From: an uncultured Rickettsiales bacterium
Lineage (GTDB): Bacteria > Myxococcota_A > UBA796 > UBA9615 > CAYRNR01
Direction of reading: 5' to 3'
DNA: 64,000 nt
NCBI GenBank assembly: GCA_964584075.1
Contig: CAZOYV010000004.1
Coordinates: forward strand, 1,131-65,130
The notes under the pieces were generated by a model, which did no database searches, was not told the origin of the DNA, and was given only the letters and a program-made list of their open reading frames with translations. The position numbers and the translations under genes were made by a program. Within the stretch, counting starts at the first letter, position 1. The number at the start of each line of letters is the position of its first letter. Positions 1,213 through 15,766 of the stretch are shown piece after piece.

Positions 1213-2068
1213 GCCCCCGGGCGCGCTCGGCCCCCCGCAGGAACTCGAGCACCCGCGCCCGGTAGCGCGCGCGGTGCTGCGCCCAGGCCAGCACGTGGGG
1301 GCTGCGGGGGAACACCACGCGCTCGCAGGGGCCGCGCAGGACCTGCCGCAGCCGCGCCGTCTCCGAGGGCGGCAGCACGCGGTCGCGCTCCCCGTGGAGG
1401 ATCAGCGCCGGGACCTCCGGCATCCGCTCCGCGGCCGCGATCAGGTCCAGGCGGTAGCGCCACCCGAGGCCGTCGAGGTACAGCCGCCGCGCCGCGATCC
1501 GGCGCAGCTCGGCCGGCTCGTCGGCGAGGCGCACGTCGATCAGGCCCCGGCAGGCGGCGGCGAGGTGGACCACCGGCCCGGAGTCCAGCACCAGGGAGCA
1601 CAGCCCGGGGCACCGCGAGGCCCCGATCAGGACCACCGCGGCGCCCATCGAGAACCCGTAGCCGTGGAACGCGCGGTGCCCCCGCCGGCGCCGCAGCCAG
1701 GTGGCCGCGGCGATGACGTCCTCGGGGCGCTGGGCCAGCGCCAGCCCGAGGGTCTCGCCGCGATCGCTGTGGCCGTGGCTGCGCCCGTCGATCAGCAGCA
1801 CCGGGTGCCCGGCCTCGCGCAGCATCCGGGCCAGCGGCAGGTAGTCGTGGCGCGTGGCGCCGAAGTGGTGGTGCAGGACCACGGGCGCGCGGGGACCGGC
1901 CGGCAGGTACCAGCCGGCGATGCGCAGGCCGTCGGCGGTGGTCAGCGCCACCTCCTCGAGCGGCCCGCCGGCGCGGCGCGTCAGCTGGGCCGGCGCGGCG
2001 CGGGGGGGCACCGGCTCGGCGAGCCGCTCGAGCAGCCCCCGGGCCGCGCGCCAACGGGGGCCCACCAC
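1139..2068 (-). CDS. alpha/beta hydrolase fold protein (GxSxG nucleophile elbow GFSMG; HG oxyanion region VVLHHHFG)
   Basis: Motifs read in the translation. The start is uncertain. I placed it at GTG 2068 (GGGGAG 9 nt upstream) to avoid overlapping the divergent gene at 2206. The ORF is open up to 2257. Confidence 0.6.
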   Translation of the reverse strand: MVGPRWRAARGLLERLAEPVPPRAAPAQLTRRAGGPLEEVALTTADGLRIAGWYLPAGPRAPVVLHHHFGATRHDYLPLARMLREAGHPVLLIDGRSHGHSDRGETLGLALAQRPEDVIAAATWLRRRRGHRAFHGYGFSMGAAVVLIGASRCPGLCSLVLDSGPVVHLAAACRGLIDVRLADEPAELRRIAARRLYLDGLGWRYRLDLIAAAERMPEVPALILHGERDRVLPPSETARLRQVLRGPCERVVFPRSPHVLAWAQHRARYRARVLEFLRGAERARGLSVEAAPSETASPRPPRAGWGDWG

Positions 2069-2205
2069 GGGCAACCGCTCCCCGATCGTTCTGGACCAGC
2101 TCGCCACCGCGGCCGACACCACCAGCTCCCTCCAGGGCTGCGCATCATAGCGCGCGGCACACGACGGTGGACGCGTGCCGGCGATCGGAGTAATCCTCGG
2201 GCGGC

Positions 2206-3117
2206 ATGGCATACGTCGAGACGATCCCCGAGACCGCGGCCACGGGCGAGACCGCACGGATCTACGAGGACATGCGCGCGCGGTTCGGCATGGTCCCCGG
2301 CCTGTTCCGGCTGATGAGCGCCGATCCGACGATCCTGCGCGAGGTCTGGAAGGCCTATCCCTACGCGATGGAGTACGGCAGCCTGGGCCGGGTGGAGCGG
2401 GAGCTGCTCGGGCTCGCGGTCTCGCGCGTCCTGGCCTGCCGCTACTGCGCCGACGGCGCGACGCGGCGGCTGCTCGACATGGGGATGACCCGGCCCCAGA
2501 TCGACGACGTCTTCGCGGCCGCCGCGGCCGAGGAGCCCGAGGGCCCCGACGCGGCGCTGATCTCGCTGGCCGAGAACGCCACCCGCGACCCCTACCGCAG
2601 CCTGCGCCCGTTCGTCCTGCGGGCCCAGGAGGCGGGCTGTGACGCCCAGCAGGTCCGCGAGGCGGCCACCGTGGTGGTCTGGTTCAACCTGCTGACGCGG
2701 CTGGTGGACGGCCTCGGCGTGCCCCACGAGCTCCGCCCCCGGCGCGGGAGCATCCAGTCGCTGCGGATGGTCGCCCAGGGGGTCGCGGCCCGGCTGTGGC
2801 GCTCGGAGAGCCTGCCGGTGGTCGAGGCGGTGCAGGAGAGCGGCGCGGGGGAGACCGCCGTGGTGATCCTGCAGAAGCTGCTCGACTGGCTGGAGCCGAT
2901 GCCCCCGTCGCTGCCGGCGGCGTTCTCCGAGGGCATCCTCTCCAACCCCCGCCAGATCCGCCGCGCGCTGGTGGACCAGATGCGAGAGGGGGGGATGGAC
3001 GACCGCACGATCTTCCGCGCCGCGTTCCTCCTCGCGGGCCGCGAGGCGCTGCTGTACTGGGACGCGATCGTGCTGGAGTGCTCCGACCCGCTGAGCGGAG
3101 AGATGCCGGGGATCTGA
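2206..3117 (+). CDS. carboxymuconolactone decarboxylase / AhpD-like family protein
   Basis: The N-terminal region (TARIYEDMRARFGMVPGLFRLMSADPTILREVWKAY) is typical of the CMD/AhpD peroxidase-related family. The ORF is clean, 303 aa. Confidence 0.7.
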   Translation: MAYVETIPETAATGETARIYEDMRARFGMVPGLFRLMSADPTILREVWKAYPYAMEYGSLGRVERELLGLAVSRVLACRYCADGATRRLLDMGMTRPQIDDVFAAAAAEEPEGPDAALISLAENATRDPYRSLRPFVLRAQEAGCDAQQVREAATVVVWFNLLTRLVDGLGVPHELRPRRGSIQSLRMVAQGVAARLWRSESLPVVEAVQESGAGETAVVILQKLLDWLEPMPPSLPAAFSEGILSNPRQIRRALVDQMREGGMDDRTIFRAAFLLAGREALLYWDAIVLECSDPLSGEMPGI

Positions 3118-3196
3118 CCTTCCGCGCTTGCACCCCGCCCGCCAGAACGCGATCTTGGGAGGACCGGCGTGCCACCGCTGCCGGCCTGGAGCCGAC

Positions 3197-4222
3197 ATGA
3201 CGACCTTCGGCGAACAGTGGCAAGACCTGGGCAAGGCGGGCCTCCTCGGCGTGGGGTTCCCGTCCCGCTTCGGCGGCCAGGGCGGCGGCCCCGCCGAGGT
3301 CTGGCGCACCGCGCGGCGGGTCGGGGAGCGGGCGTTCGATCTCAGCGTCGGGCTGTCCTGGATCTCCCACCAGATCGCCGCGCGATTCCTGCTCGGGCAG
3401 TACGGGTCCGAGGACCAGAAGGCCGCCTGGCTGCCCCGGCTGGCGACCGGCGAGGCCGTCGCGGCGATCGCCGTGGACGAGGCCGAGACCGAGCCCAGCC
3501 GCTGGAACCTGCACGCGCGGTACCGGCCCACCACCGGCGGTCACTTCGTGCTCGAGGGCAAGAAGCTGTCGGTGATCAACGGGCCGGTGGCCGACCTGCT
3601 GCTGTACTTCGCCGTGGCGCGGACCGAGGGCGAGCTCGACGGACTGCAGGCGTTCCTCGTGCACCGCGACACCCCCGGGGTGACGATGGAGGAGCTCGAG
3701 GGCCGCAGCTACTGCCCCTACAGCCCCCAGTCCAACGTGATCCTGCGCGAGTGCTTCATCCCCGAGGCCAGCGCCCTGGGGACGCGGGCGCAGTGCCGCG
3801 ACATGCTCGAGCACATCGGCGAGCAGCACGACGTGCTGGTGCTGCAGGTGATCACCGGGTTCCTCGAGCGGATGGTCCAGGAGCTGCGGCCGCTGCTCCG
3901 CCGCAGCGACCGCGATCGGCTGCTGGCGCTGGGCCTGCGCGGCCGGCTGATGGCCCTCGGCGCCCTCAACCGGGCGATCGCCAAGCGCTGGGCGGATCGC
4001 GCCGAGGACCCCGCCACCTTCGCCGCGGCCCAGATGGCGGCGCGCGAGCTGATCCAGGTCACGCGCCAGGACCTGGGCGATCTGCCCGACCACCCCGCGG
4101 TGCTCGCGGCCCAGCGGGATCTGGAGCTGATCTCCCTGGCCTGGCCGCGGACCAAGGGCCGCTTCATCGCGGCGGTGCGCGCCGAGGAGACCGACGAGCA
4201 CGAGGCGCCGCCCCGCGCTTGA
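3197..4222 (+). CDS. acyl-CoA dehydrogenase-like protein (divergent, short N-terminus)
   Basis: ACAD-like segments LGKAGLLGVGFPSRFGGQG and the middle beta-domain GGHFVLEGKKLSVINGPVADLLLYFA. Start taken at the internal ATG at 3197. Confidence 0.55.
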   Translation: MTTFGEQWQDLGKAGLLGVGFPSRFGGQGGGPAEVWRTARRVGERAFDLSVGLSWISHQIAARFLLGQYGSEDQKAAWLPRLATGEAVAAIAVDEAETEPSRWNLHARYRPTTGGHFVLEGKKLSVINGPVADLLLYFAVARTEGELDGLQAFLVHRDTPGVTMEELEGRSYCPYSPQSNVILRECFIPEASALGTRAQCRDMLEHIGEQHDVLVLQVITGFLERMVQELRPLLRRSDRDRLLALGLRGRLMALGALNRAIAKRWADRAEDPATFAAAQMAARELIQVTRQDLGDLPDHPAVLAAQRDLELISLAWPRTKGRFIAAVRAEETDEHEAPPRA

Positions 4223-4316
4223 CGATCCGTGGGCCCGTGGCTACCCTCTCCCTGTTTCGAAGCGCATGGATCAGCTCCCCGCACACGGGGAGTTCTGAGG
4301 TAGAAGGCGACGCTCG

Positions 4317-4535
4317 ATGAGCAGTGCGGACCAGATCGAGCTCGAAGGCACGATCACCGAGGTGTTCCCCGGCGGGAACTTCAAGGTGGAGACCGATCAA
4401 GGCCACACCGTGTTGGCCCATCTCGGTGGCAAGATGCGGAAGTTCCGCATCCGGGTGCTGCTGGGCGATCGCGTCATCGTCGCCGTCTCGCCCTACGACC
4501 TGAGTCGGGGCCGGATCATCTATCGCCAGCGATAG
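4317..4535 (+). CDS. infA: translation initiation factor IF-1
   Basis: 72 aa with near-identity to the IF-1 consensus (GTITEVFPGGNFKVETDQGHTVLAHLGGKMRKFRIRVLLGDRVIVAVSPYDLSRGRIIYRQR). Confidence 0.95.
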   Translation: MSSADQIELEGTITEVFPGGNFKVETDQGHTVLAHLGGKMRKFRIRVLLGDRVIVAVSPYDLSRGRIIYRQR

Positions 4536-4618
4536 ATCGACGCGGTGCGAGCCCGAGGCCCCGACCCGGCCGACACCGGACAGCTGTGCGTGGAACGGTT
4601 GGCTCTGCAGGAGGCACG

Positions 4619-4933
4619 ATGCACCGGAATGCTCCCCTCGTCTTCACCAGCCCCAGGCTGTTCGTCAACAACCTGCCCTACTCGGCGACCGAGGAGGAGC
4701 TGCGCCTGATCTTCGAGGAGGACGGCTGGACCGTCGTCGACGCGCGGGTGATCTTCGATCGCGCCACCGGGCTGTCCCGGCGCTTCGGCTTCGTCGAGCT
4801 GGCCTCGATCCAGGAGGCGCGGCTGGCCCAGAAGTCGCTCGACGGGTTCGTGATCCGCGACGAGAAGCTGGACATCTACCCCGCCAAGGACGACCCCGAT
4901 CCGCGCAGCGGCTGGAAGGACCGGCGCGGCTAG
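4619..4933 (+). CDS. RNA-binding protein with RRM domain
   Basis: RNP-2-like LFVNNLPY and RNP-1-like RRFGFVEL motifs. GGAGG RBS 6 nt upstream of ATG 4619. Confidence 0.8.
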   Translation: MHRNAPLVFTSPRLFVNNLPYSATEEELRLIFEEDGWTVVDARVIFDRATGLSRRFGFVELASIQEARLAQKSLDGFVIRDEKLDIYPAKDDPDPRSGWKDRRG

Positions 4934-5469
4934 CCGGTCTCGTCGAGCCCGTCCCCGTCCCCCGACCTCGCCACCACGCACGCCCACAGCCGACCACGCC
5001 CGCCGGCGACGCCCACGCCGATCCCGAGGACGCGCTCCAGTAGCTCGTGTGCGGGGTCGCCGGAGACCACCGCGCGCCACAGCGCCGCCGCGGCGGCGTC
5101 CTCGTCCGGGCCCGCCGGCACCAGGCTGACGCGCCACTCCCGCAGCGCACCGCCCAGGGACGGGTGGAGCGAGGTGCGCCGCCCGTCCACGTCGCGGCCC
5201 TGGTCGTCGACCGCGGCCGTCTCGCCGGCGACGGACATCCAGTGCGCGTGGTGGCGAGCCAGCTCGTCGACGCGATCGTCGCGCGGCGGCGGCGGACGGC
5301 CGGCCGACGCACGGGACTCGTCGAGGCGGACCCGCAGCGCGGCCTCGACCCGCGTCGGGTCCGGCCCCAGGTGGGCGGGGCGCGCCCGGCGGGGCCCCGC
5401 TCCGTCCCGGCGCATCCGCACCAGCACCAGCGCCGTGGCCCCCGCCACCGCCGCGATCGCGAGCACCAC
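4930..5469 (-). CDS. hypothetical membrane-anchored protein (N-terminal TM VVLAIAAVAGATALVLV)
   Basis: GTG start 20 nt downstream of the MerR-like gene stop, preceded by GGGGGAGG. Likely co-transcribed with it. Confidence 0.45.
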   Translation of the reverse strand: MVLAIAAVAGATALVLVRMRRDGAGPRRARPAHLGPDPTRVEAALRVRLDESRASAGRPPPPRDDRVDELARHHAHWMSVAGETAAVDDQGRDVDGRRTSLHPSLGGALREWRVSLVPAGPDEDAAAAALWRAVVSGDPAHELLERVLGIGVGVAGGRGRLWACVVARSGDGDGLDETG

Positions 5470-5489
5470 GAGGACCTCCCCCAGCCCGG

Positions 5490-6404
5490 TCACCCGACGT
5501 CCCCCGACCGTCGCAGCAGCGCCCCCGCGTCCGCCGCGTCCGCCGCGAACTGCGCCCCGCGGCCGGTGACGGCGCGGGCGTACGGCTCGACCCCGCGGCC
5601 GACGACGATCAGCGCGCACGAGGGGGGCAGGGCGGTGAGCCAGTGGTCCAGCAGGGCCAGGAAGGCCCCCAGCTCCGGCGCCCGCTCGAAGGTCAGCAGC
5701 ACGCACGACGCCCCGCCGACGCGGACCATCTCCTGGAGCTCCTCGGGGGTGGCGTCACGGCTGGCGAGGATCCCCTGCCAGCCGGCCTCGAGGCAGCGCA
5801 GGAACACCTGTAGCGGGTCGCCCGCGGCGGTCTCGCCCGAACCGGGCGCGACCAGCGCCACCGGGGCCCCTGCCGGCAGGTCGACCCCCAGCGGTCCCGC
5901 GAACCCCCGGACCTCCGCGAGCGCCAGGGCCAGCCCCGAGCTCCGCCGCCGCTGCCGCGCCGCGCGCGCCGAGAGCCGGGCCAGCAGCGGCAGCAGCACC
6001 TCCCCGGCGACCTCCGCGGTGGGCAGCAGCACCAGGGCGCGGCGCAGCGCCCGCCGGAAGCCGAAGACGTCCAGCTCCGAGGCCAGGGTCGCCAGCTGCT
6101 CGACCACCGCGGCGTGCTGCCCCCGCGGGGCCGCGGTGGCCACCGCGTCCGACTGCTCGCGCAGCCGCTCCACCATCCGCTCGAGCTCGGCGGTGTCGTG
6201 CGCCGCGATCTCGCCGATCGACCAGCCACGGGCGGTCAGCACGCGCAGCAGGCGCAGCCGCTCGACGTCCTGCTCGGAGTACTCGCGATAGCCGCCGGGG
6301 GTGCGGCTCGGGTGCACCACGCCGTAGCGCCGCTCCCAGGCCCGCAGGACCTCGGGGCTGAGCCCCGTGACGCGCGCCACGGTCTTGATCCGGAAGCCCT
6401 TCAT
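5490..6404 (-). CDS. MerR-family transcriptional regulator with C-terminal CarH/LitR-like (cobalamin-binding-like) domain
   Basis: N-terminal MerR HTH (MKGFRIKTVARVTGLSPEVLRAWERRYGVV...YREYSEQDVERL). The C-terminus shows a Rossmann-like B12-binding-domain pattern (SxLLT-like ASCVLLTF, VIVGG-like IVVGRG). No canonical DxHxxG was seen. Confidence 0.7.
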   Translation of the reverse strand: MKGFRIKTVARVTGLSPEVLRAWERRYGVVHPSRTPGGYREYSEQDVERLRLLRVLTARGWSIGEIAAHDTAELERMVERLREQSDAVATAAPRGQHAAVVEQLATLASELDVFGFRRALRRALVLLPTAEVAGEVLLPLLARLSARAARQRRRSSGLALALAEVRGFAGPLGVDLPAGAPVALVAPGSGETAAGDPLQVFLRCLEAGWQGILASRDATPEELQEMVRVGGASCVLLTFERAPELGAFLALLDHWLTALPPSCALIVVGRGVEPYARAVTGRGAQFAADAADAGALLRRSGDVG

Positions 6405-6431
6405 CGTGGGGAGAGTCTAAAGCGAGGCTCG

Positions 6432-7604
6432 TCAGTACGCCATCCGCGCCAGCACCCCGCCGCCACGCACGGCGTAGACCAGCCGCACGTCGGGGTCGAC
6501 GGTGATGTCGGTCTGGGGGCCGCCGACGTCCACCGCCGAGGCCAGCCCCGAGGCCACGTCGACCACGACCGCGCTGCGGTCGGTCTGCAGCGCGACGAAC
6601 AGGTAGCCGGCCACCGGATCGATCGCGAGCCCGACCGGCGCGTCGGGCAGCACGATCGTCTCGTGCTCCCCACCGGCGGGGTCGAGGGCGACCACGCTGT
6701 GGGACTCCTGGCACGCGACGTACAGCCGGCCGGTGATCGGGTCCTGGACCATCTCGACGGGGCCGCTCTCGACCAGCAGCGGCTCGGGGTCGCCGCCGTC
6801 GAACGGCAGCCGGTGCACGGTGTCGAGGTGGCGCTGCAGCACGAAGATCGACCCGTCGCCCTCGTCGACCATCACCTGGCCCTCCACCGGGCCCCCGGGG
6901 AAGGTCCACGACAGGATCTCGCCGGCCGAGCCGTAGATCCGCAGCCGGCTGGTGTGCTCGTCCGGGGCGCTGAGCAGCATCGCCGTGCGCTGGTGCGCGG
7001 CGTAGGTCAGGTCCACCGGGATCTCGCCCTCGATCGGCTGGGGACAGATCAGGTTGGTCGTCTCGCCGATCCGCAGGCACTGGAAGTCGATCCCCCACGG
7101 GGTGCGATCGGCGAGCAGCACCTGGCCGGCCTCCTCGCTGGCGAACATCAGCCGCCGGGGCAGCCCGTCGGCCTCCTCGGGGCCGACCAGCCCCGGGTCG
7201 GCGCTCAGCACGTGGTCCGGCTCGCCGCCGACGTGGACCATCACCGGGACGCCGTCGTAGTCCGGCAGCCGGACCATCACCGCGCCCCCGCGCGGCAGGG
7301 GCGTCAGCCCCTCGGGGGGATCGCCGCGCTCGCCGTCGGGCCGCACGTGGGCGTACTGCACCAGGTGGGCGGCGAGGCCGTCGACCACCGCCAGCGAGTC
7401 CAGCTCGTCGCCGGCGACGTAGACCACGTGGGTGGCCGGATCGACCGCCACCATCGAGGCCCCGATCGGCTCGTGCTCGCCGTCGTTGAGCGCGATCGGG
7501 ACGACGTGGAACGCGCCGGCGTCGAGCAGCATCTCGCGGTCGCTGAGGCTGGAGCAGCCCGCCGCGGCGAGCGCCACCAGCGCGATCCACGGCCCGGGCC
7601 TCAT
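6432..7604 (-). CDS. lipoprotein with YVTN-type beta-propeller repeats
   Basis: Signal peptide plus lipobox-like LAAAGCSS. Repeated motifs such as HVVYVAG, RLYVAC and YLFVAL. The start ATG overlaps the upstream stop (ATGA). Confidence 0.65.
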   Translation of the reverse strand: MRPGPWIALVALAAAGCSSLSDREMLLDAGAFHVVPIALNDGEHEPIGASMVAVDPATHVVYVAGDELDSLAVVDGLAAHLVQYAHVRPDGERGDPPEGLTPLPRGGAVMVRLPDYDGVPVMVHVGGEPDHVLSADPGLVGPEEADGLPRRLMFASEEAGQVLLADRTPWGIDFQCLRIGETTNLICPQPIEGEIPVDLTYAAHQRTAMLLSAPDEHTSRLRIYGSAGEILSWTFPGGPVEGQVMVDEGDGSIFVLQRHLDTVHRLPFDGGDPEPLLVESGPVEMVQDPITGRLYVACQESHSVVALDPAGGEHETIVLPDAPVGLAIDPVAGYLFVALQTDRSAVVVDVASGLASAVDVGGPQTDITVDPDVRLVYAVRGGGVLARMAY

Positions 7605-9325
7605 CGCACGCTCCCGAGCAGCCGGAGCTGCGCGCCGATCAGCACGCCGAGGCGCGCCTCGGGGACGCCGTACATGTCCTCCACCGGCGGCGCGTAGAGG
7701 TCGACGAACCCGGCGGCCTGGACGCCGAACCGGCGCGGCCCCCACAGGTCGATCCCGGTGACCAGCCCCGGTGCGGGCATCAGCGCGCTCTGGGGTGCCT
7801 CGGCGACCCCGCCGTCGTCGCGGCGGACCCACACGGCCATCATCTGCAGCCGGGGCCCGATCCAGAAGCTGGCGCGGCGCACGTCGCCGCAGGCCTGGAC
7901 GCCGACCCCGACGCGCACGGCGTCCGCGCGCACCGACAGGCCCTGCGCGGCCTGATAGGCCCCCTGGCCGTGGGCGTAGCCGGCGTCGACGGTGAACCGC
8001 ACGGTCCGCGCCCGGCCGACGAAGCGGTGCCGGTAGGACACGTCCGGGCCCAGCGAGAACGCCGGGTAGTTCTGGGAGAACGGGCCGGCGACCCCGAAGC
8101 CCGCGACGCCGGCGGCGAGGCTGTCCCGCCCCTCGGCGCGGTGCTCGTCGACCAGCGCGTCGACCGACAGGCTCTGCCCCGGCGAGACGCGCACGGTGCG
8201 CTGGACCAGCATCTCCCCGTCGTCGCCGGGGGCGACGACCTCGACGTGGTGCAGCCCGGGCTCCACCGGGATCGCCCGCGGCAGCGCGCCGCGGGGCTGG
8301 CCGTCGACGCGGATGCTGCACTGGGCCAGCAGGCGGCCGTAGCTGGTCAGCAGCCCCTTCTCGGCGGCCCACAGCGAGTCGTCCCCGCCGGAGAGGTAGA
8401 TGTCCTCGCGCCCCACCTCGCGGAACAGCGCGCGCGGGACCTGGGCCCCGCCGGTGTGGGCGATGGTGTGGTCGCGGGCGTACTCGTGGGCCTCGGTCAC
8501 CGAGATCACGCCGTCGCGGTCCAGGTCGGCCTCGTCCATCCGGTCGCCGAGCGCCTGCATCAGGTAGTAGGTGAACACGCCGTGCCCCAGCTCGGGGTCC
8601 TCCAGCGCCGGCTGGTGGAACGCCGCGGCGAACAGGTGCGCCTCGGCCTCTCCGACGCGGGTCAGGATCCGCGGGTCGACCGGGGAGCGGCGGCGGGCCA
8701 GGCGCTCCAGCGTCTCGGCGTCGAGCACGCTCTTGGCCTCGCCGTTGTGGCAGCTGTCGAGGACCATCACCTTGCGGCGGCAGGGCAGCCGCTGGAGGAT
8801 CCGCTGCAGGGTGTCCACCGCGATGGCCGTCGACTGGGGGTGCCGCTGGTCCGCGTCCCGCGGGCAGACGTACAGCGTCGAACCGCCCGACGAATCGGTG
8901 GACAGCGTGCCGTGGCCCGAGAAGTACAGCAGCACCGTGTCGTTGCGCTGCAGCGGGGCGATCAGGTCGTCCAGCGCCGCGAGGATCTCGACCCGGGTGG
9001 TCTGCTCCGGCCCGGTCAGGACCACGACGTCGTCGAACCCCCCGCGCAGCGGGTCGCGCAGCAGCGCGGCGAGCTCCTCGGCGTCGTCGCCGGCGAAGCG
9101 CAGCGCGGGGAACGCGTCGTCGTCGTAGCGGTCGACCCCGACGAGCAGGGCGACCCGGCGGGGCTGGTAGGCCTCGTCGACGAGGGAGGGATCGGCCGGG
9201 GCGTCGGCCAGCCCCCGCGGCTGCACGTCGGCCCGTGCCCCCGACGGCCAGGCCGTCGCGAGCAGCAGACCCGCGCACGCGATCAGCGCGAGGCGTCCTT
9301 GACGGTGGCCTCGACCTCGACCCAA
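7601..9325 (-). CDS. secreted caspase-family (peptidase C14) protein with C-terminal extension
   Basis: Signal peptide LALIACAGLLLATAWPSGARA. Caspase catalytic dyad contexts YFSGHG (His) and VMVLDSCHNG (Cys). The start is TTG at 9325 and overlaps the anti-sigma gene end by about 43 nt. Confidence 0.7.
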   Translation of the reverse strand: MGRGRGHRQGRLALIACAGLLLATAWPSGARADVQPRGLADAPADPSLVDEAYQPRRVALLVGVDRYDDDAFPALRFAGDDAEELAALLRDPLRGGFDDVVVLTGPEQTTRVEILAALDDLIAPLQRNDTVLLYFSGHGTLSTDSSGGSTLYVCPRDADQRHPQSTAIAVDTLQRILQRLPCRRKVMVLDSCHNGEAKSVLDAETLERLARRRSPVDPRILTRVGEAEAHLFAAAFHQPALEDPELGHGVFTYYLMQALGDRMDEADLDRDGVISVTEAHEYARDHTIAHTGGAQVPRALFREVGREDIYLSGGDDSLWAAEKGLLTSYGRLLAQCSIRVDGQPRGALPRAIPVEPGLHHVEVVAPGDDGEMLVQRTVRVSPGQSLSVDALVDEHRAEGRDSLAAGVAGFGVAGPFSQNYPAFSLGPDVSYRHRFVGRARTVRFTVDAGYAHGQGAYQAAQGLSVRADAVRVGVGVQACGDVRRASFWIGPRLQMMAVWVRRDDGGVAEAPQSALMPAPGLVTGIDLWGPRRFGVQAAGFVDLYAPPVEDMYGVPEARLGVLIGAQLRLLGSVR

Positions 9326-9984
9326 GCCACCTCCGCGCCCTCGCCCAGGAGGGTGATGTGGGGGAGCGTCTCTCCCCCGGGTTTCCAGTCCTCTGGCGGA
9401 GCCGCCTGGGAGTACACCGCGGCGAAACGGTGAGGGCCCGCCTCTGTGACATAGAATACCTGCAAGCGGCCATCCCGGCGTAGATCATTCGCGCCGGCGA
9501 CCCCGGGCAGCGTCGTCAGCGGCTCCCACGCCTCGCCCGGAGGCTCCACCAGGAAGGTCAGCATCCCCGCCCGATCGAGCTCGGCGCGCAGGTACACCGC
9601 GTCCCCGACGCGCAGGCGATCGTCGGCCTCGAGGCGCGCGGGCGCCTCGGCGTCGGGGTGCTGCACCAGGAAGTCGAGGTGCACCCCCGCGGGGGCCTCG
9701 TCCCCCGTGCCGCGGGGGGTCAGCCCCGCCGCGCTCTCCGCGGGCGGCTGCACGAACCACATCACGGCCACGGCGGCGGCCGCGGCCCCCAGCGCGGAGA
9801 CCGCCGCCACCAGCGCCGTGCGGCGCCACGACGGCCCGCGGCGTTCGGCGCGCAGGCGACCCTGGATGTCCTGGAGCACCGCGCGGTCCAGGTCTCGCGG
9901 CACCGGCTCCCGCGGGAGCAGCGCCGCCAGCGCCTCGACCGGGGGCTCGGGCCCCTCGATGATCACGTCGTCTCGCTGGCTCAT
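9283..9984 (-). CDS. membrane-spanning anti-sigma factor (cognate to upstream ECF sigma)
   Basis: ATGA overlap with the sigma factor stop. Cytoplasmic N-domain, a single TM (ALVAAVSALGAAAAAVAVMWFV) and a periplasmic domain. Position is immediately downstream of the ECF sigma gene. Confidence 0.6.
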   Translation of the reverse strand: MSQRDDVIIEGPEPPVEALAALLPREPVPRDLDRAVLQDIQGRLRAERRGPSWRRTALVAAVSALGAAAAAVAVMWFVQPPAESAAGLTPRGTGDEAPAGVHLDFLVQHPDAEAPARLEADDRLRVGDAVYLRAELDRAGMLTFLVEPPGEAWEPLTTLPGVAGANDLRRDGRLQVFYVTEAGPHRFAAVYSQAAPPEDWKPGGETLPHITLLGEGAEVAWVEVEATVKDASR

Positions 9985-10568
9985 CCCGTCATCTCCTCCG
10001 CAACCGGATCGGCCGAGAGGATCTCTCGGAGCTGTCGGCGCCCGCGGAAGATCGTCATCTTGGCGGCGGCTGCGGTGCAGTCCATCGTCTCGGAGACCTC
10101 CCGCGCGGTGTAGCCGTACAGATCGTGCAGCAACACCGCGGCCCGCCGACGCTCGGGGAGCTTCTCCAGCGCCGCGCGGAGCACCCGCTGCTTCTCTTCC
10201 CGGTAGGCCTCGTGCTCGGGCCCCGGCCGGTGCTCGGAGGGATCGGGCTGCCGGTCGTCGGGGCGCGAGCGGTTCTCGATGTCCCGCCACCCCTTGGACC
10301 GGCTGAGATCGACGCACAGCCGGTAGACGATGGTGTACAGGAACGTCGAGAACTTGGCCGTCGGTTGGTACCGGTGGCGGGACTTGTGCAGCCGCACGAA
10401 AGCCTCGTGGTACACCTCCTCCACCAGATCCTCCCGCGGGACGAAGCGGCGGATGAAGAAGTACACCCGCTCCTTGTGACGCACGTAGAGCTGCTCGAAG
10501 GCACGCTCGTCCCCCTCGCAGTACGCGAGCATGAGGTGTTCGTCCGTCACCATTCCCTCGTCGTCCAT
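9981..10568 (-). CDS. RNA polymerase ECF-type sigma-70 factor
   Basis: Region 2 (LMLAYCEGDERAFEQLYVRHKERVYFFIRRFV) and region 4 (LPERRRAAVLLHDLYGYTAREVSETMDCT...AKMTIFRGRRQLREIL). Start ambiguous between 10553, 10568 and 10601. Confidence 0.85.
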   Translation of the reverse strand: MDDEGMVTDEHLMLAYCEGDERAFEQLYVRHKERVYFFIRRFVPREDLVEEVYHEAFVRLHKSRHRYQPTAKFSTFLYTIVYRLCVDLSRSKGWRDIENRSRPDDRQPDPSEHRPGPEHEAYREEKQRVLRAALEKLPERRRAAVLLHDLYGYTAREVSETMDCTAAAAKMTIFRGRRQLREILSADPVAEEMTG

Positions 10569-10629
10569 CTCAACGATCCCGCGCCGAGAACGGTTCGCCA
10601 CCGTCTCGCCGTCACCAGTCCTTGACGGG

Positions 10630-10655
10630 ATCTTGACACTCGATCTTCGAAGCTG
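10630..10655 (-). promoter_or_regulatory. candidate ECF-type autoregulatory promoter (minus strand GGGAACC ... GTC)
   Basis: Minus strand reads GGGAACC, then about 18 nt, then GTCAAG, roughly 35-60 nt upstream of the sigma factor start. This resembles the ECF -35 GGAAC / -10 CGTC architecture, but the spacing is slightly long. Confidence 0.25.
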
Positions 10656-10892
10656 GTTCCCGAAAAGTGGCCCGGGGGCCCCCCGGGGGGCGGCGGTCGT
10701 TTGCTCCTTCGCGTGCGCCGCGCCCCCGGGAGGCGGGCCGACCCCGGGCGCCCGGCTCCCCCAACTGTTGCTGGCCGGGACGATCCCCGGGGTCGGGGTC
10801 CGGGCCGCCCCCCCATTCGGGCGGCGCCGGCCCGCGGAGGCGCTTCAAGCTCCGTGCCAGCGTCGCGATCCGCACGCCCACGGGCTCCCCGC

Positions 10893-10951
10893 GTCCGGAC
10901 CGTCCGGGCGGCGTCCGAAATCCGGACGGCGCCGACCGGAATTCGGACGCG
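10893..10951. promoter_or_regulatory. cluster of short GC-rich palindromes (GTCCGGAC; CGTCCG-aaatc-CGGACG; CCGAATTCGG) in divergent intergenic region
   Basis: Read directly from the sequence. Three related palindromic/inverted-repeat elements lie within 60 bp, about 130 bp upstream of the 11080 gene. Confidence 0.3.
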
Positions 10952-11079
10952 CGCACGGTAAGAGCGTGGTAGGAGGGAGCGGGGCGCGGCTCGACTAGGG
11001 TGAATAATGCCCGGGGTTGCCGCGACTATTCACGGTACGGGCAGCCCGGCACGGGACCGGATGTCCGGAGGAGAGGACG

Positions 11080-13167
11080 ATGGCGAGCGGGCTCGGTCGA
11101 TGGCTCAAGACTCTCGTCTCCCGGGGCAGCGGGACCGACCAGGAGCGCTACCTGGCCATCGACGACCTCGAGAACGGGTACTACAACTACCGCCTTATGC
11201 GCTTCCGCTCGGACGGCGATCTGGTCCGCTACCCCGACTACATCTGGAGCAGCGCGGGCTACTGGGCCGCCCGCGGGGGGCTGAGCGTGCACCTCGAGGA
11301 GCTGGCCGAGGCGCTCGAGGGCGCGATCTACTCGGACATCCTGGTCGTGCTCAACCGCGAGGACCGCAAGCGCTGCCTCGAGCGGCTGGTGATGCCCTGG
11401 GACGACCAGCTCGAGGCCCTCGTCGACAAGCAGGTCGAGCGCATGATCGCCGAGCGCGGCTGGCGGCTGGCGACCCCCGGGCGCCCGGTCCGGATGCGCG
11501 TGGTCGGCGACGGCGACGTGGCGATGGGCGGCGAGCCGGTGGGGCTCGAGGAGGGGGAGTTCGCCACGGCGCTGCTGCCGTCGCTGTACCACGGCCCGGT
11601 GGAGAGCTCGAGGCCGCTGGCCGAGGTGTTCGTGCGGGTGCCCAAGGAGGTGGGCGGCAAGGGCGGCTTCCGGTCGGTGGGGACGTTCTACGACGACCAG
11701 CTGGCGTTCACGATCGGGCGGCACTGGCTGGACAACGGGCGGGACCCGCTCCTGCCCGCCTCGGCGCTGTACACCCTGCACCGCTTCCCGGGGCAGACCG
11801 AGATCAACCACCGGCTCAACGCCGACCTGGCCGACCGCTACTCGATGGTCCGCACCAGCTCCAGCCAGGGCGACACGATCACGATCCAGGACACCGCGTC
11901 GTCGCGCCCGGTGCTCGAGGTGATGCTGATCCCCGACGGGGTCGAGCGCACCCGGTCCCCGCAGCGCGATCCGCGCCCCGCCGCGGGAGACCCGCTGGGG
12001 ACGCTGATCCCCGACGGGGAGCCGGCCTTCGGCGGGCTGACGATGATCCCCGAGCCCGAGCCGGTGCCGTCGCTGGTGCTCAGCCGCCGGGCGGTGCTGC
12101 TGCAGCGCGTGCACTTCTCCGGGGTGATGCGCGGGTACCACATGGACGTCACCGCCGACGGCACGATCGTGCCGCAGCACCCGGCCCCGGCGGCCCGCTT
12201 CCGGGTCGAGGACGGCGAGGTCCACTTCGAGCCGCTGCGCCGCGACATCACCCTCGACGGGGTGCCGACCCGCGCGGGCCGGCGCCAGCTGCTGGACAAG
12301 CTGGTCCACACGGTGTGCTTCGGCACCGTCACGCTGGAGTACCGCGCCGCGCCGCGGCGGGACGACCCGCGCTGGCCGTACCTGGCCGAGATCACGGTCC
12401 CCGCCGAGCCCACCGAGCTGGCGGTCGGGGGCACCTACCGGGTCGGGCGCGACCGCCGCAAGTGCGAGATCCCGCTGCCCGATCGCGCGGTGATCGAGAA
12501 CATCCTGTGGCACCCGTCGGTCAACCGGCAGGGGGCGATCCGGACCCGCACCGGCGAGGTCCCGGTGGAGTCGTTCACCACCGACTCGATCATGGTCGCC
12601 GGCCGCCACGCCGAGCTCGACCTGCGCGGCTCCGAGCCCAAGGTCCGGGCGCTGAGCAAGGTCTGCCCGGTGTTCGTCCGCCGCGCCGACAAGTCGGTGC
12701 TGCGCCTGATCGCCCGCGAGGGCAGCACCGCCCAGCCGCTGGCCGCCGGCGACGAGCTGCTGATCGGCAACGCGCTGTTCCGCGTGATCCTGCCCGGTGG
12801 CGCCCAGGGGCTGCTCCACACCACGACCAAGCTGCGGCCGCCCGCCGACCTGACGCCACCGCCGGAGGGCGCCCGCCACGACGACCCGTCGTTCCTCGAT
12901 CCCCCCGAGCCGGAGATCGCCGATCCCGACTCGCTGCACGACCTGACCGACCTGCCCTCGCTGCCCGGAGACGAGTCCGCGCACGAGCGGCAGGTGGTCG
13001 CCGCGGTGCAGGCCGGGGACGAACCCGCCAGCCCTCGCGACCCCGAGCGCGATCCACCGGGGTGGTACGGAGACCTGCCCAAGATGCTGCGCAGCCGCCT
13101 GGCGCTGCCCGAGCTGGGGGTCGACACCATCTCGCTGGACGAGTCGCTCACGGTGGCGGAGGGCTAG
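11080..13167 (+). CDS. hypothetical protein with degenerate C-terminal FHA-like domain
   Basis: GGAGGAGAGG RBS before ATG 11080. Natural composition over about 695 aa. FHA-like segment ...TYRVGRDRRKCEIPLPDRAV...GDELLIGNALFRVIL. First gene of a three-gene plus-strand operon. Confidence 0.6.
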   Translation: MASGLGRWLKTLVSRGSGTDQERYLAIDDLENGYYNYRLMRFRSDGDLVRYPDYIWSSAGYWAARGGLSVHLEELAEALEGAIYSDILVVLNREDRKRCLERLVMPWDDQLEALVDKQVERMIAERGWRLATPGRPVRMRVVGDGDVAMGGEPVGLEEGEFATALLPSLYHGPVESSRPLAEVFVRVPKEVGGKGGFRSVGTFYDDQLAFTIGRHWLDNGRDPLLPASALYTLHRFPGQTEINHRLNADLADRYSMVRTSSSQGDTITIQDTASSRPVLEVMLIPDGVERTRSPQRDPRPAAGDPLGTLIPDGEPAFGGLTMIPEPEPVPSLVLSRRAVLLQRVHFSGVMRGYHMDVTADGTIVPQHPAPAARFRVEDGEVHFEPLRRDITLDGVPTRAGRRQLLDKLVHTVCFGTVTLEYRAAPRRDDPRWPYLAEITVPAEPTELAVGGTYRVGRDRRKCEIPLPDRAVIENILWHPSVNRQGAIRTRTGEVPVESFTTDSIMVAGRHAELDLRGSEPKVRALSKVCPVFVRRADKSVLRLIAREGSTAQPLAAGDELLIGNALFRVILPGGAQGLLHTTTKLRPPADLTPPPEGARHDDPSFLDPPEPEIADPDSLHDLTDLPSLPGDESAHERQVVAAVQAGDEPASPRDPERDPPGWYGDLPKMLRSRLALPELGVDTISLDESLTVAEG

Positions 13168-13177
13168 GAGCCCGCCG

Positions 13178-15766
13178 GTGCCGGCGACGTTCCACCTCGC
13201 CTGGGCCGGCCTGCTGACGCTGCTGCTCGCGATGGCGCTCGGTGCGCCGGCGCGGACGTCCGCGCGCCCCGCGGCGCTGGCCCCCCAGCTCGCCGCCGGG
13301 GTCCTCGTGCTGGCCCTGCTCGCCGCGGCGCTGGGGCCGGCGGGGGGGGAGCGCGGCCCGGCGCTGGAGGCGTGGCGCGTGCGGGTCGGAGCGGGCGACG
13401 GCCCCGCCGTGCTGGGCACCGACGCCCGCTGCGACGTGGTGCTCGCCGACCCCCACGGCGACGCCGTCCACGCCGAGGTGACGTTCCCCGCCGGGGGACC
13501 GGCGATCCACAACCTGTCGGCCGCCCGCCGGGTCGAGCGCGACGGGATCGAGATCCACGACCCGGCGCTGCAGGTCGGGGACCGCCTGCTGCTGGGCGAC
13601 CGGGGCTGGACCGTCGCCCGGATCGGCGAGGCGTGGCCGGGGATCGTGCTGCGCGGCGACGACGGCGCCCGGCTGCGCCTGCGGCCCCCGCTGCGGCGGG
13701 CGCTGGCCGGGGCGTGGCCCGGGTCGGAGCTGGAGACCGCGGTGGCGTGGCTGGACGCCGACCGTGGCGAGTGGGAGACCCGCCGCCCCGAGGTCCCCAC
13801 CGGCCCGGTGGCCGAGCTGGCGCTCCGCGGGCGCTCCGCCCTGCTGCGCTACCCCACCGCCGGCGACCGCGCCGCCCACCCCCTGCGCGCCGAGCTGGGG
13901 GGGGCGCCCGCGCTGCGCCCCGCCGACCGGGCCGCCCCGCTCCACGAGGGCGACGAGCTGACGCTGGGCTACACGCGCTACCGCGTCGCGATCGGCCCCG
14001 ACGGCTCGCTGTCGCTGGAGGTCGTCGGGACGCCTCCGCGGCGGGCGTTCGACCCCGACGACGGCCTGCTCGCGATCGGCCCCGGGGGGGACCTGCCGTG
14101 GTCCACCGGTCGCCCCGTGCACCTCCAGGTGCGGCGCGGCGAGGAGCCCGGCGAGCTGTGGATGATCAGCACGGATCCCGGCTGGGTCCTGGGCCGCCGC
14201 CAGGGCTACCTGTGGCTCCACCCGCGCGGGGGCTCCACCCGCCCGGCCGAGCCGCAGCTGCTGCGTCGCGGGTCGGGGCTGATCGTCAGCGGCCCCCGCC
14301 ACGAGGCCGTCTACCGCTACCGCGCGGCGCCGACCGTCGCGGCCCTGCTCGCCGGCGAGGAGCCGGGGACCCCGGAGGCGCGGTTCTGGCGCGCCGCTGC
14401 CCTCGCGGCGGCCCTGTACCTCGTCCTGATCGTCCTGCTCCACCGCGCGGGGGTCCTGCACCTGCGCAACGCCGCCATGCTGCACGGGGCCGTGCTGCTG
14501 TTCGGCCTCGGCCTGGCGGTGTTGCTCGAGCTGTCCCCGCCGGGCGACCCGCGCCGCGCGGAGCTGGCGGCGCGCCAGGCGTGGTTCGGGGTCCTGGGGC
14601 TCGGCGCCGGGGCGGCCGCCGCGGCGGCGTGGTGGGCGGGCACCCGCTGGCGCGGCCGCGCGGCCCTCCCCGGGCGCTGGCTGCGGTTCCTCGAGGCGCC
14701 GCTGGGGGGGCGCCGCTGGGGCCACCTGCGGCCGCTGTCGCTGTCGCGCGTCAGCCTGCTGTGGGGGCTGGCGGCGGCGGTCCTGGCCCTGCAGCTGCCG
14801 TTCGGCGAGCGCGGCCTGCCGGTCCCGCTGCTGGGCTCGGCCCAGCCGGTGGAGGCGGCCAAGGCGCTGCTGATGGTCTACGCCGCGTTCCTCGCGGTGC
14901 GGGCGCTGGAGGACAAGCGGGCGCGGCGGGCAGGTCCCGAGGGGCTGGTGCGGCGCTGGTCGTACATGCTGCACGCCATCCCGATCGTCGCCATCGCGGC
15001 GCTGTGCTACGGCCTCGAGGACTTCTCCCCGGTGCTGATCGTGGGGCTGTTCCTGTGGACGATGTACCTGCTGTCGCTGCGGACCCCGGCGCGGTCGTTC
15101 TGGCCCCCGCGCCGGTGGCTGCAGAACGTCTACGTCGAGCAGGCGGTCCTGGTCGGGCTGGCCGTGGGTGCGGTGACGCTGGCGGCCTCGCTGGGGCACG
15201 GCACGGTCGCCGATCGCTTCGCCGCGTGGTCCGACCCGTGGCACCGCACCACCACGTCGGGGCAGTTCGTCGCGTCGCTGTGGATGGTGATCGACGGGGG
15301 CGTCCTGGGCCGCGGCTTCGGGAGCCCGCTCCCGCCGCTGCCTCCGGCGGCCCACGACGACTTCGTGCTCTCGGTGCTGGCCAACCGCACCGGGCTGGTC
15401 GGCCTGCTGCTCGTCGCCGCGACGCTGGGCGCGATGGTGGCCGGGGGGTTCGCCGCGATCCGGGCGATCGGCCCCGCGACCCGCCCCGACCTGGCCGGGC
15501 TGGGCTGGCTCGAGCGGGCGCGGATGCTGGGCGTCTCGGCGCTGGTGATGCTCTCGATCCAGAGCGCCGTGGTGTTCGCCTCGGTGACCGGCTGGGCGCC
15601 CGTGATGGGCCAGCCGATGCCGTTCGTCGCCGCCGGCGGCTCGCACCTGCTGCTGCTGGGCGTGCCCGTCGTGGCGCTGCTGCTGGCCTCGACCCGGTAC
15701 CAACCGGCGGCGCGGCGCGTCGCGGCGCCGAGATCGGAGGTGGAGCGTGGCGAGCGGGCGGCCTGA
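13178..15766 (+). CDS. SEDS-family (RodA/FtsW-like) peptidoglycan polymerase with long N-terminal extension containing FHA-like modules
   Basis: C-terminal half carries SEDS signature blocks: QPVEAAKALLMVYAAFL (cf. QPSEFAK), HDDFVLSVLANRTG (cf. DFIFSVI), MPFVAAGGSHLLLLG (cf. LPFVSYGGSS). The N-terminal half has FHA-like LGTDARCDVVLADPHGDAVHAEVTF...GDRLLLG. GTG start at 13178. Confidence 0.75.
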   Translation: MPATFHLAWAGLLTLLLAMALGAPARTSARPAALAPQLAAGVLVLALLAAALGPAGGERGPALEAWRVRVGAGDGPAVLGTDARCDVVLADPHGDAVHAEVTFPAGGPAIHNLSAARRVERDGIEIHDPALQVGDRLLLGDRGWTVARIGEAWPGIVLRGDDGARLRLRPPLRRALAGAWPGSELETAVAWLDADRGEWETRRPEVPTGPVAELALRGRSALLRYPTAGDRAAHPLRAELGGAPALRPADRAAPLHEGDELTLGYTRYRVAIGPDGSLSLEVVGTPPRRAFDPDDGLLAIGPGGDLPWSTGRPVHLQVRRGEEPGELWMISTDPGWVLGRRQGYLWLHPRGGSTRPAEPQLLRRGSGLIVSGPRHEAVYRYRAAPTVAALLAGEEPGTPEARFWRAAALAAALYLVLIVLLHRAGVLHLRNAAMLHGAVLLFGLGLAVLLELSPPGDPRRAELAARQAWFGVLGLGAGAAAAAAWWAGTRWRGRAALPGRWLRFLEAPLGGRRWGHLRPLSLSRVSLLWGLAAAVLALQLPFGERGLPVPLLGSAQPVEAAKALLMVYAAFLAVRALEDKRARRAGPEGLVRRWSYMLHAIPIVAIAALCYGLEDFSPVLIVGLFLWTMYLLSLRTPARSFWPPRRWLQNVYVEQAVLVGLAVGAVTLAASLGHGTVADRFAAWSDPWHRTTTSGQFVASLWMVIDGGVLGRGFGSPLPPLPPAAHDDFVLSVLANRTGLVGLLLVAATLGAMVAGGFAAIRAIGPATRPDLAGLGWLERARMLGVSALVMLSIQSAVVFASVTGWAPVMGQPMPFVAAGGSHLLLLGVPVVALLLASTRYQPAARRVAAPRSEVERGERAA

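Follow-up and report, generated by a model that had tools for sequence, protein, structure and literature searches.

Within the 64,000-nucleotide stretch of contig CAZOYV010000004.1 (assembly GCA_964584075.1) that we analyzed here and refer to as the window, four genes on the minus strand encode, in this order, a sigma factor of the extracytoplasmic function (ECF) type, a single-pass membrane protein, a caspase homologue of the C14 family and a lipoprotein (Table 1). An initial annotation of this DNA had described these genes as an operon linked by ATGA start/stop overlaps, and we found both overlaps where they had been placed, at positions 9981-9984 (sigma/anti-sigma) and 7601-7604 (caspase/lipoprotein). 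The reading frames of the membrane protein and the caspase overlap by 43 nt, the extent previously given as approximate, provided that translation of the caspase starts at the TTG codon at position 9325; this is the only in-frame start codon upstream of the core of its signal peptide. Together with the profile matches, the intact catalytic dyad, the conserved promoter and the synteny observed in 71 of 71 loci, all of which are detailed below, these overlaps confirm that the window genes form a real, coupled four-gene operon and support the idea that it is under dedicated ECF control. We infer that this operon, located in a window with a G+C content of about 75%, constitutes a self-contained and autoregulated envelope signalling unit, the parts of which can be named with high confidence and the mechanism of which is proposed on the basis of these parts; its earlier designation as an envelope module is a fair description.

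Table 1. Positions of the operon, its genes and their predicted features in the 64-kb window (aa, amino acids; ORF, open reading frame; pLDDT, predicted local distance difference test score).
Feature	Positions	Strand	Basis or detail
Four-gene operon	6432-10601	(-)	Sigma, membrane protein, caspase and lipoprotein ORFs from ORF calling
Putative autoregulated ECF promoter, GGAAC-N17-TGTC	10635-10660	(-)	-35 GGAAC 10660-10656; -10 TGTC 10638-10635
ECF (group 4) sigma factor, 206 aa, GTG start	9981-10601	(-)	Pfam and NCBIfam profiles
Single-pass membrane protein, putative anti-sigma factor, 233 aa	9283-9984	(-)	ATGA overlap with sigma stop; position; orthologues
Transmembrane helix of the putative anti-sigma factor, aa 57-78	9751-9816	(-)	Hydropathy maximum 2.27; modelled helices 57-63 and 68-78
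Arg91-Gly92, conserved [RK]-G linker motif, proposed cleavage site	9709-9714	(-)	59/59 orthologues
Periplasmic Ig-like beta-sandwich of the putative anti-sigma factor, aa 100-228	9301-9687	(-)	pLDDT ~85-92
C14 caspase-family protease precursor, 574 aa, TTG start	7601-9325	(-)	PF00656
Caspase signal peptide, aa 1-32, cleavage predicted ARA/D	9230-9325	(-)	By eye; helix 9-24, low pLDDT
Caspase/metacaspase catalytic domain, aa 56-302	8420-9160	(-)	His138 8912-8914; Cys192 8750-8752
Small Ig/PEGA-like beta domain, aa 324-387	8165-8356	(-)	AlphaFold strands; PEGA E = 0.037, sub-threshold
Predicted C-terminal 8-stranded outer-membrane beta-barrel, aa 401-573	7607-8125	(-)	AlphaFold strands, Foldseek
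YVTN-type beta-propeller lipoprotein, 390 aa	6432-7604	(-)	ATGA overlap with caspase stop; lipobox; profile

The product of the first gene matches the Sigma70_r2 (PF04542; E = 3.5e-15, 56 bits with a cut-off of 24) and Sigma70_r4_2 (PF08281; E = 3.9e-14, 52.5 bits with a cut-off of 25.7) families, and the ECF superfamily model TIGR02937 recognizes it with 108.4 bits (cut-off 42.9). Its scores against the equivalog and subfamily models of NCBIfam all remain far below the respective cut-offs, the best being that for PRK12513 (128 bits; cut-off 206). Profile searches recovered the Sigma70_r2/r4 families and, for the third gene, Peptidase_C14, as had been expected from the initial annotation; they returned neither an anti-sigma family for the second gene nor, from the single sequence, YVTN repeats for the fourth.

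In the AlphaFold model, the second protein consists of a short cytoplasmic N-terminus, one transmembrane helix, a linker (residues 79-97) that is modelled as disordered with pLDDT values below 50, and a periplasmic beta-sandwich. The same general layout, with a single transmembrane helix between a short N-terminal part and a C-terminal domain, is found in nineteen close relatives, and none of these orthologues could be placed in a Pfam family. The only NCBIfam match of the window protein is a sub-threshold one to PRK13920 (16 bits). A Foldseek search of the PDB with the beta-sandwich yielded no significant neighbour (best E = 3e-3) and revealed only a generic Ig-like sandwich; an assignment of this domain to DUF4384 found no support. 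What identifies the gene family is the zinc anti-sigma signature HxxxCxxC, which is present in the cytoplasmic N-terminus of 12 of the 59 positional orthologues and marks the family as one of anti-sigma factors. The window protein, whose N-terminus is shortened relative to the family, is given this name because of its genomic context and the continuity of the family rather than by family definition, as it does not carry the zinc anti-sigma (ZAS) signature. We accordingly treat the middle gene as one that probably codes for an anti-sigma factor.

The third protein carries a Peptidase_C14 domain (PF00656; 63.8 bits with a cut-off of 21.4; residues 56-284), and its AlphaFold2 model has a mean pLDDT of 88. 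The catalytic domain, modelled with pLDDT values of about 90-98, adopts the caspase/haemoglobinase fold. When the catalytic part was compared with the PDB by Foldseek, the best match was the MALT1 paracaspase (caspase-Ig3; E = 1.4e-14), and GSU0716 of Geobacter (3bij) and metacaspases were found with E values of 1e-9 to 1e-11. Both sequence contexts of the catalytic dyad that had been reported as intact, YFSGHG around His138 and DSCHNG around Cys192, are indeed present. An alignment of 72 homologues shows no substitution of His138, Cys192, Asp81 or Asp190, and Ser136 is conserved in at least 90% of these sequences. Scores for the NCBIfam model NF047832 (caspase_w_EACC1; 113.7 bits) and for CHAT (20 bits) were below the cut-offs of 140 and 24, respectively.

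In metacaspases and orthocaspases, acidic residues in the S1 pocket confer specificity for Arg or Lys at the P1 position of the substrate. Profile alignments pair the window family's LRfAakDA and SGHG segments with LRGCINDA and SGHG of yeast Yca1, and its DtChnG segment with DSCHSG of GSU0716 (3bij). Since Asp81 and Ser136 (by comparison with Yca1) and Asp190 (by comparison with GSU0716) fall on metacaspase S1 positions, cleavage after Arg or Lys is predicted, and the alignments portray the enzyme as a probably Arg/Lys-specific protease with a metacaspase-type pocket. A loop that follows the catalytic cysteine (residues 207-217; positions 8675-8707, minus strand) has the conserved pattern L-x-[LM]-R-[GS]-x-P-P-x-P-R, which reads RRRS-PVDPR in the window; Arg or Lys is found at the first position of the R-[GS] pair in 60, and Gly or Ser at the second in 61, of the 72 sequences. 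Judged from this pattern, the loop may be an autoprocessing site that resembles the [RK]-G motif of the anti-sigma linker described below.

The caspase had been annotated as a secreted protein with a signal peptide, and this is in line with its N-terminus (MGRGRGHRQGR-LALIACAGLLLATAW-PSGARA, then D), both when inspected by eye and through the helix modelled for residues 9-24. Export via this predicted signal peptide stands; a free enzyme is not what the model depicts, as the protein ends in a predicted outer-membrane barrel that would tether the protease in the periplasm. AlphaFold models this barrel as eight long antiparallel strands with pLDDT values of about 80-97, and Foldseek relates it to NspA (1p4t; E = 1.2e-6, target TM-score 0.77) and to the OmpA barrel (9fzd; E = 1.1e-5). 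The barrel has no match in Pfam, and the amphipathicity of its strands is only moderately supportive. A domain that is located N-terminally to a barrel with an even number of strands faces the periplasm. By the model, the protease should consequently be a periplasmic one that is held at the inner face of the outer membrane by the barrel, with the Ig/PEGA-like domain as a spacer. Two other arrangements were considered and discarded: a freely secreted enzyme, because of the C-terminal outer-membrane barrel in the model, and a type Va autotransporter, since there are eight strands instead of 12 and no helix plugs the barrel.

The lipoprotein encoded by the fourth gene possesses the lipobox LAAAGC with Cys17 at positions 7554-7556. 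As a single sequence it has no match in Pfam and scores only 15.9 bits against the YVTN model TIGR02276 (cut-off 27.85). Its earlier assignment as a YVTN beta-propeller was upheld when we used a profile built from eight orthologues: this profile matches the YVTN propeller 1l0q in three stretches (E = 5.3e-15), a similarity that covers only residues ~245-385, and it also matches the beta subunit of hydrazine synthase (5c2v_B; E = 6.9e-10).

To place the operon in a broader context, we collected about 100 full-length relatives of the caspase with lengths of 520-580 amino acids, most of them from metagenome-assembled genomes (MAGs) labelled as Myxococcota. We then searched 1.84 billion cluster representatives with a 540-position caspase profile and obtained 2621 of them at E <= 1e-30; among the 150 best, the majority align to the profile from end to end, which indicates that the caspase architecture is widespread. 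In three relatives with 40-64% identity, genes for the sigma factor, a protein of 190-243 amino acids and the caspase follow each other in unchanged order. A scan with one genome per species, for which hidden Markov models were applied to six-frame ORFs, provided 80 loci. For 71 of the caspase genes, 1.5 kb or more of upstream sequence was available, and each of them is preceded on the same strand by an ECF sigma gene that ends 515-1111 nt (median 707) upstream; a gene between sigma factor and caspase is present across the family, and most often its start shares 4 nt with the end of the sigma gene.

In nearly all loci, the caspase gene has a 3' neighbour on the same strand, the product of which mostly carries a lipobox or a signal peptide, but these fourth genes belong to three unrelated families. 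Family A comprises lipoproteins of about 500 amino acids with HYDIN/ASH/DUF1573 Ig-like domains (Pfam; 49 loci), a second family has MopE metal-binding repeats (Pfam; nine loci), and the third, the YVTN lipoprotein of about 390 amino acids, occurs only in the window and the seven closely related loci L003-L009. The family A lipoproteins (e.g., L001, 7659-9203) conserve C-[ED]-P-[FLI]-G-P directly at the lipid-modified cysteine. Of the four-gene synteny suggested by the initial annotation, the sigma factor, the membrane protein and the caspase are retained, and the YVTN lipoprotein is confined to the clade of the window. Only the sigma factor, the membrane protein and the caspase are universally conserved together. 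Within this set, the periplasmic domain of the anti-sigma factor is kept together with the caspase, and the cytoplasmic domain of the anti-sigma factor is swapped, as is the fourth gene. This pattern points to the caspase rather than the lipoprotein as the constant periplasmic partner, and it counts in favour of the site-1 protease role discussed below.

Several genomes harbour more than one copy of the module. Tandem copies are found in L069 (sigma genes at 1277-1930 and 4541-5149, caspase genes at 1893-4502 and 5276-7459) and in L082, and three MAGs each carry two diverged copies (L006/L074, L007/L073 and L034/L077); these duplications parallel the four copies reported for Myxococcus xanthus. 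The window itself contains no paralogue of the operon. A number of the MAG records (L003-L009, L013-L020, L030, L041 and L043) are contigs of 63-74% G+C that are titled Rickettsiales, Enterobacterales, Klebsiella pneumoniae or Bifidobacterium breve, labels that are evidently wrong. For the window itself, the labels of the homologues and the G+C content of about 75% point to Myxococcota.

The initial annotation had placed an ECF promoter at 10630-10655; the motif is present, and its actual position is 10635-10660, a displacement of 5 nt. GGAAC-N17-TGTC has a single match in the 64-kb window, for which the chance expectation is 1.1. Each of the seven close relatives (L003-L009) has GGAAC-N16/17-TGTC at a single place in the locus, shortly before the sigma gene, and neither the spacer nor the flanks of the motif are conserved among them. 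This promoter is absent from the distant loci. Instead, about 50 of these possess TGTCACAC-N15-CGTA once per ~13-kb locus, directly upstream of the sigma gene, so that there is no single family-wide promoter. The latter motif, which we take to resemble the ECF41-type sequence TGTCACA-N16-CGTC, is very strongly conserved as TGTCACAC(C)-N15-CGTA in L010-L071 (e.g., L001, 4702-4728). The difference between the clades indicates that promoter specificity has diverged within one operon family. From the placement of these motifs, the operon looks autoregulated. A simple scan of positions 4200-11200 for sigma-70 promoters and intrinsic terminators found neither, a result that is uninformative at 75% G+C.

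How does the caspase contribute to this signalling unit? It had been viewed as the output of the sigma factor; the linker of the anti-sigma factor and the predicted S1 pocket of the caspase make an input role, as a site-1 protease, at least as likely. In all 59 positional orthologues, drawn from all clades, the transmembrane helix is followed at a distance of 10-16 residues by [LM][VT]x[RK]G. Gly92 (98%) and Arg/Lys91 (95%) rank among the most strongly conserved columns of the family alignment, although the proteins are just 13-30% identical between clades, and [RK]-G is the one polar motif outside the folded domain that the anti-sigma family conserves. The presence of [RK]-G in 59 of 59 otherwise divergent anti-sigma factors, in a disordered linker and in agreement with the predicted specificity of the caspase, supports the site-1 step. 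We consider it possible, though slightly short of probable, that the caspase is the site-1 protease that cuts the anti-sigma factor and thereby switches the sigma factor on. In such a scheme, a signal would be perceived at the outer membrane by the barrel or by the exchangeable lipoprotein. The tethered caspase would then cut the anti-sigma factor after Arg91 (LTPR/G) in the disordered linker beside the inner membrane, and this site-1 cut would open the anti-sigma factor to intramembrane (RseP-type) and cytoplasmic proteolysis. The freed sigma factor would transcribe its own operon from GGAAC-N17-TGTC, creating positive feedback, along with any unlinked targets.

A number of observations weigh against this proposal. 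The geometry is tight, as a protease tethered to the outer membrane must reach, across the peptidoglycan, a site that is located about 15 residues from the inner membrane. Furthermore, the conserved [RK]-G could serve another protease as its cleavage site, or it could be a docking motif. The window anti-sigma factor has no Pfam match and neither a Cys nor a His motif. As to the membrane anchor, many of the more distant homologues of the caspase end in ...GLSVGAAF, a typical terminus of outer-membrane proteins; the window protein ends in ...LRLLGSVR, and the barrel of its clade is devoid of the terminal aromatic residue that is typical of such proteins. Finally, the caspase gene is itself part of the sigma-driven operon, and a second local copy of the promoter was found neither in the 64-kb window nor in the ~13-kb loci.

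The position of the caspase gene inside the sigma-driven operon fits an output role equally well. In this alternative, which we regard as a serious but rather doubtful one, the anti-sigma factor itself detects the signal with its periplasmic Ig-like domain, generic proteases of the DegS/Prc/RseP type inactivate it, and the caspase and the lipoprotein are induced products that would remodel or degrade periplasmic or outer-membrane proteins under stress. The caspase and lipoprotein genes are downstream members of one and the same, apparently autoregulated operon, their start codons overlapping the stop codons before them, and a promoter motif that occurs once per locus, and once in 64 kb, leaves the operon's own genes as the only visible targets. 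Moreover, conserved neighbours represent the output in many ECF groups. This explanation does not account, however, for the finding that the [RK]-G of the linker is the best-conserved polar feature of the anti-sigma factor and matches the specificity of the caspase, nor for the conservation of the periplasmic domain along with the caspase in loci with a different fourth gene.

The strict co-occurrence of the caspase with the periplasmic domain of the anti-sigma factor can also be read in another way. The caspase, held on its tether, might bind this domain or the lipoprotein and work like RseB, as a co-sensor or protector, and cleave other substrates or itself; the conserved R-[GS] in its loop (209-219), a possible autoprocessing site, would be compatible with the latter. 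We deem a non-proteolytic partnership of this kind improbable, as the dyad and the S1 pocket, which are invariant over 72 sequences, argue for a catalytic role.

Even less probable, in our view, is a module for death, development or defence, in which the ECF system would trigger caspase-driven lysis or an anti-phage response, much as eukaryotic caspases or the defence island under DdvS/DdvA control would suggest. Apart from the caspase homology as such, this idea draws on a match to the generic 'caspase' model of PADLOC (2.6e-15) and on the control that the M. xanthus DdvS/DdvA pair exerts over the cyclic oligonucleotide-based anti-phage signalling system (CBASS) and CRISPR-Cas systems (PMC11506125). 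PADLOC was negative for the other three proteins, and since its only match is the generic caspase one, we have set the defence reading aside. Moreover, the NCBIfam caspase_w_EACC1 score lies below its cut-off, neither the window nor any of the related loci inspected has defence genes next to the operon, and a periplasmic, outer-membrane-tethered location would exclude cytoplasmic death substrates. Nothing was found in our analysis that backs the programmed-death or developmental role contemplated in the initial annotation.

Operons of this general kind have been catalogued before. Four of the five metacaspases of M. xanthus DK1622 are encoded in operons with sigma-70-family factors, and metacaspase/sigma operons likewise occur in Anaeromyxobacter, Haliangium, Sorangium, Ralstonia (R. 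pickettii) and Fibrobacter (Asplund-Samuelsson et al., 2012; PMC3501461). One M. xanthus operon listed there codes for an ECF sigma factor, MXAN_4950 (with one N-in/C-out helix), a metacaspase, a lipoprotein and a PKD-domain protein; another for an ECF sigma factor, MXAN_6682 (one helix), MXAN_6683 (577 amino acids, C14 at residues 17-286) and a lipoprotein; and a third for an ECF sigma factor, MXAN_7215 and a 510-amino-acid 'ICE-like protease' (PMC3501461). The rows for Haliangium and Anaeromyxobacter give a sigma factor, a hypothetical protein and a metacaspase, and the hypothetical protein of Haliangium has one N-in/C-out helix (PMC3501461). The metacaspases in this catalogue are 510-577 amino acids long, with an N-terminal C14 domain and about 290 unannotated C-terminal residues; the catalogue reports co-occurrence only, with no anti-sigma assignment, barrel, [RK]-G motif, promoter or mechanism (PMC3501461). 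Judged only by length and layout, the catalogued myxobacterial metacaspases may be barrel-bearing proteins of the window family. To this catalogued, uncharacterised operon type, the window operon adds a new member.

Our literature search retrieved no paper that links ECF or anti-sigma factors with Peptidase_C14, or ECF sigma factors of M. xanthus with metacaspases; it returned no functional work later than 2012, and two of the M. xanthus locus tags surfaced in passing mentions only. Caspases are likewise not mentioned in the main text of the ECF reclassification paper. The outer-membrane anchor, the anti-sigma assignment, the [RK]-G site and the promoter footprints appear not to have been described in the literature searched.

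Three cases serve as precedents that support the reading of the caspase as a site-1 protease. In M. xanthus DdvA, an anti-sigma factor is fused to a periplasmic TPR-CHAT part of caspase fold that is proposed to cut its own linker ahead of RseP (PMC6061681, PMC11506125); Csx30, which inhibits an ECF-like sigma factor, is cut by the CHAT protease Csx29 (PMC10028731); and the gene neighbourhood of ECF54 includes CHAT and other proteases (PMC8999054). Like the window operon, DdvS/DdvA combines an ECF sigma factor with a single-pass anti-sigma factor and with a proposed periplasmic cut by a caspase-fold His/Cys protease in a membrane-proximal linker, followed by RseP. In DdvA, however, the TPR-CHAT part and the anti-sigma factor form one polypeptide, and the cut is proposed to be made in the other subunit of a dimer, whereas the window possesses a separate C14 protein that is predicted to be anchored in the outer membrane. 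In addition, DdvA has a zinc anti-sigma domain that the window anti-sigma factor (233 amino acids, with the periplasmic Ig-like domain only) does not contain, and DdvS drives a CBASS/CRISPR-Cas defence island while no defence genes lie at the window operon. The protease role of the DdvA CHAT part is itself a proposal (PMC11506125). Cleavage of a sigma inhibitor by a caspase-fold enzyme was shown experimentally for Craspase (Cas7-11, the TPR-CHAT protein Csx29, Csx30 and CASP-sigma; PMC10028731); this system differs from the window operon in being cytoplasmic, RNA-guided and CRISPR-associated and in its protease family (CHAT) and substrate.

The proposed sequence of events also resembles the RpoE/RseA/DegS/RseP pathway of Escherichia coli, in which an envelope signal leads to a site-1 clip of a single-pass anti-sigma factor, intramembrane cleavage, sigma release and autoregulation (summarized in PMC10028731 and PMC11506125). 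DegS is a PDZ serine protease that is anchored in the inner membrane, is activated by the C-termini of outer-membrane proteins and is not encoded together with rpoE; the candidate in the window is, in contrast, a caspase-clan cysteine protease for which an outer-membrane tether is predicted and whose gene belongs to the operon itself. FecI/FecR/FecA, a three-part arrangement that spans the envelope, shares with the window the combination of an ECF sigma factor, an inner-membrane anti-sigma factor with a periplasmic domain and an outer-membrane barrel with a facing periplasmic N-terminal domain. Unlike FecIRA, the window operon has neither a TonB-dependent 22-strand receptor nor a FecR domain nor homology to the signalling domain, and its periplasmic domain is a protease; searches of Pfam and NCBIfam with the four operon proteins gave no matches to TonB-dependent transducers or FecR. 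MALT1 and GSU0716 (3bij), the closest solved structures to the catalytic domain, share just 13-22% identity with the window caspase, and neither has a membrane barrel. In MALT1, as in the window protein, an Ig-like domain directly follows the caspase domain, but MALT1 is a cytoplasmic eukaryotic scaffold protease.

The function of bacterial caspase homologues is a long-standing question, and they have mostly been discussed in terms of programmed cell death on little evidence. With the predicted outer-membrane anchor, the conserved R/G site in the anti-sigma linker, the matching protease pocket, the putative autoregulated promoter and the exchangeable lipoprotein, what was known as a mere co-occurrence of genes becomes a defined hypothesis open to mutational tests, and the operon family is large, with four copies in the genetically tractable M. 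xanthus according to the 2012 catalogue. In a generalization that we put forward quite tentatively, a large family of bacterial metacaspases would be outer-membrane-tethered site-1 proteases acting along a hitherto unrecognized route that runs from the barrel and a variable lipoprotein receptor through an [RK]/G cut in the anti-sigma factor to the release of an ECF sigma factor. If true, this would add a caspase-clan site-1 protease and a new relay from the outer membrane to the cytoplasm to the control of ECF sigma factors, and it would provide a first concrete physiological function for prokaryotic caspase homologues. The switching-on of a transcription factor by caspase cleavage would then exist in the bacterial envelope. 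If the caspase is instead an output of the sigma factor, the operon defines an inducible periplasmic caspase that would act on envelope substrates.

Downstream of the operon, 27 nt after the stop codon of the lipoprotein gene, starts a gene for a MerR-family regulator of 304 amino acids (5490-6404, minus strand) with a weak, sub-threshold CarH-like match. No terminator was detected between the two genes, and a MerR gene is likewise found 3' of the operon in the relative with 64% identity; the operon transcript may thus extend into the MerR gene. A gene at 11017-13167 (plus strand), which points away from the region of the sigma promoter, codes for a 716-amino-acid protein without a match in Pfam or NCBIfam. 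It is followed at 13178-15766 (plus strand) by a gene for an FtsW/RodA fusion with a weak, below-cut-off match to the FHA-like Yop-YscD_cpl family. The same divergent neighbours are present in one close relative, including a 2090-amino-acid product with FTSW_RODA_SPOVE, Transpeptidase and weak Yop-YscD_cpl matches; the more distant loci have no such 716-amino-acid and FtsW/RodA neighbours. On the other side, infA, encoding translation initiation factor IF-1 (4317-4535, plus strand), adjoins a gene for a 115-amino-acid RRM_1 RNA-binding protein (4586-4933, plus strand), and this pair is kept beside the operon in that same close relative.

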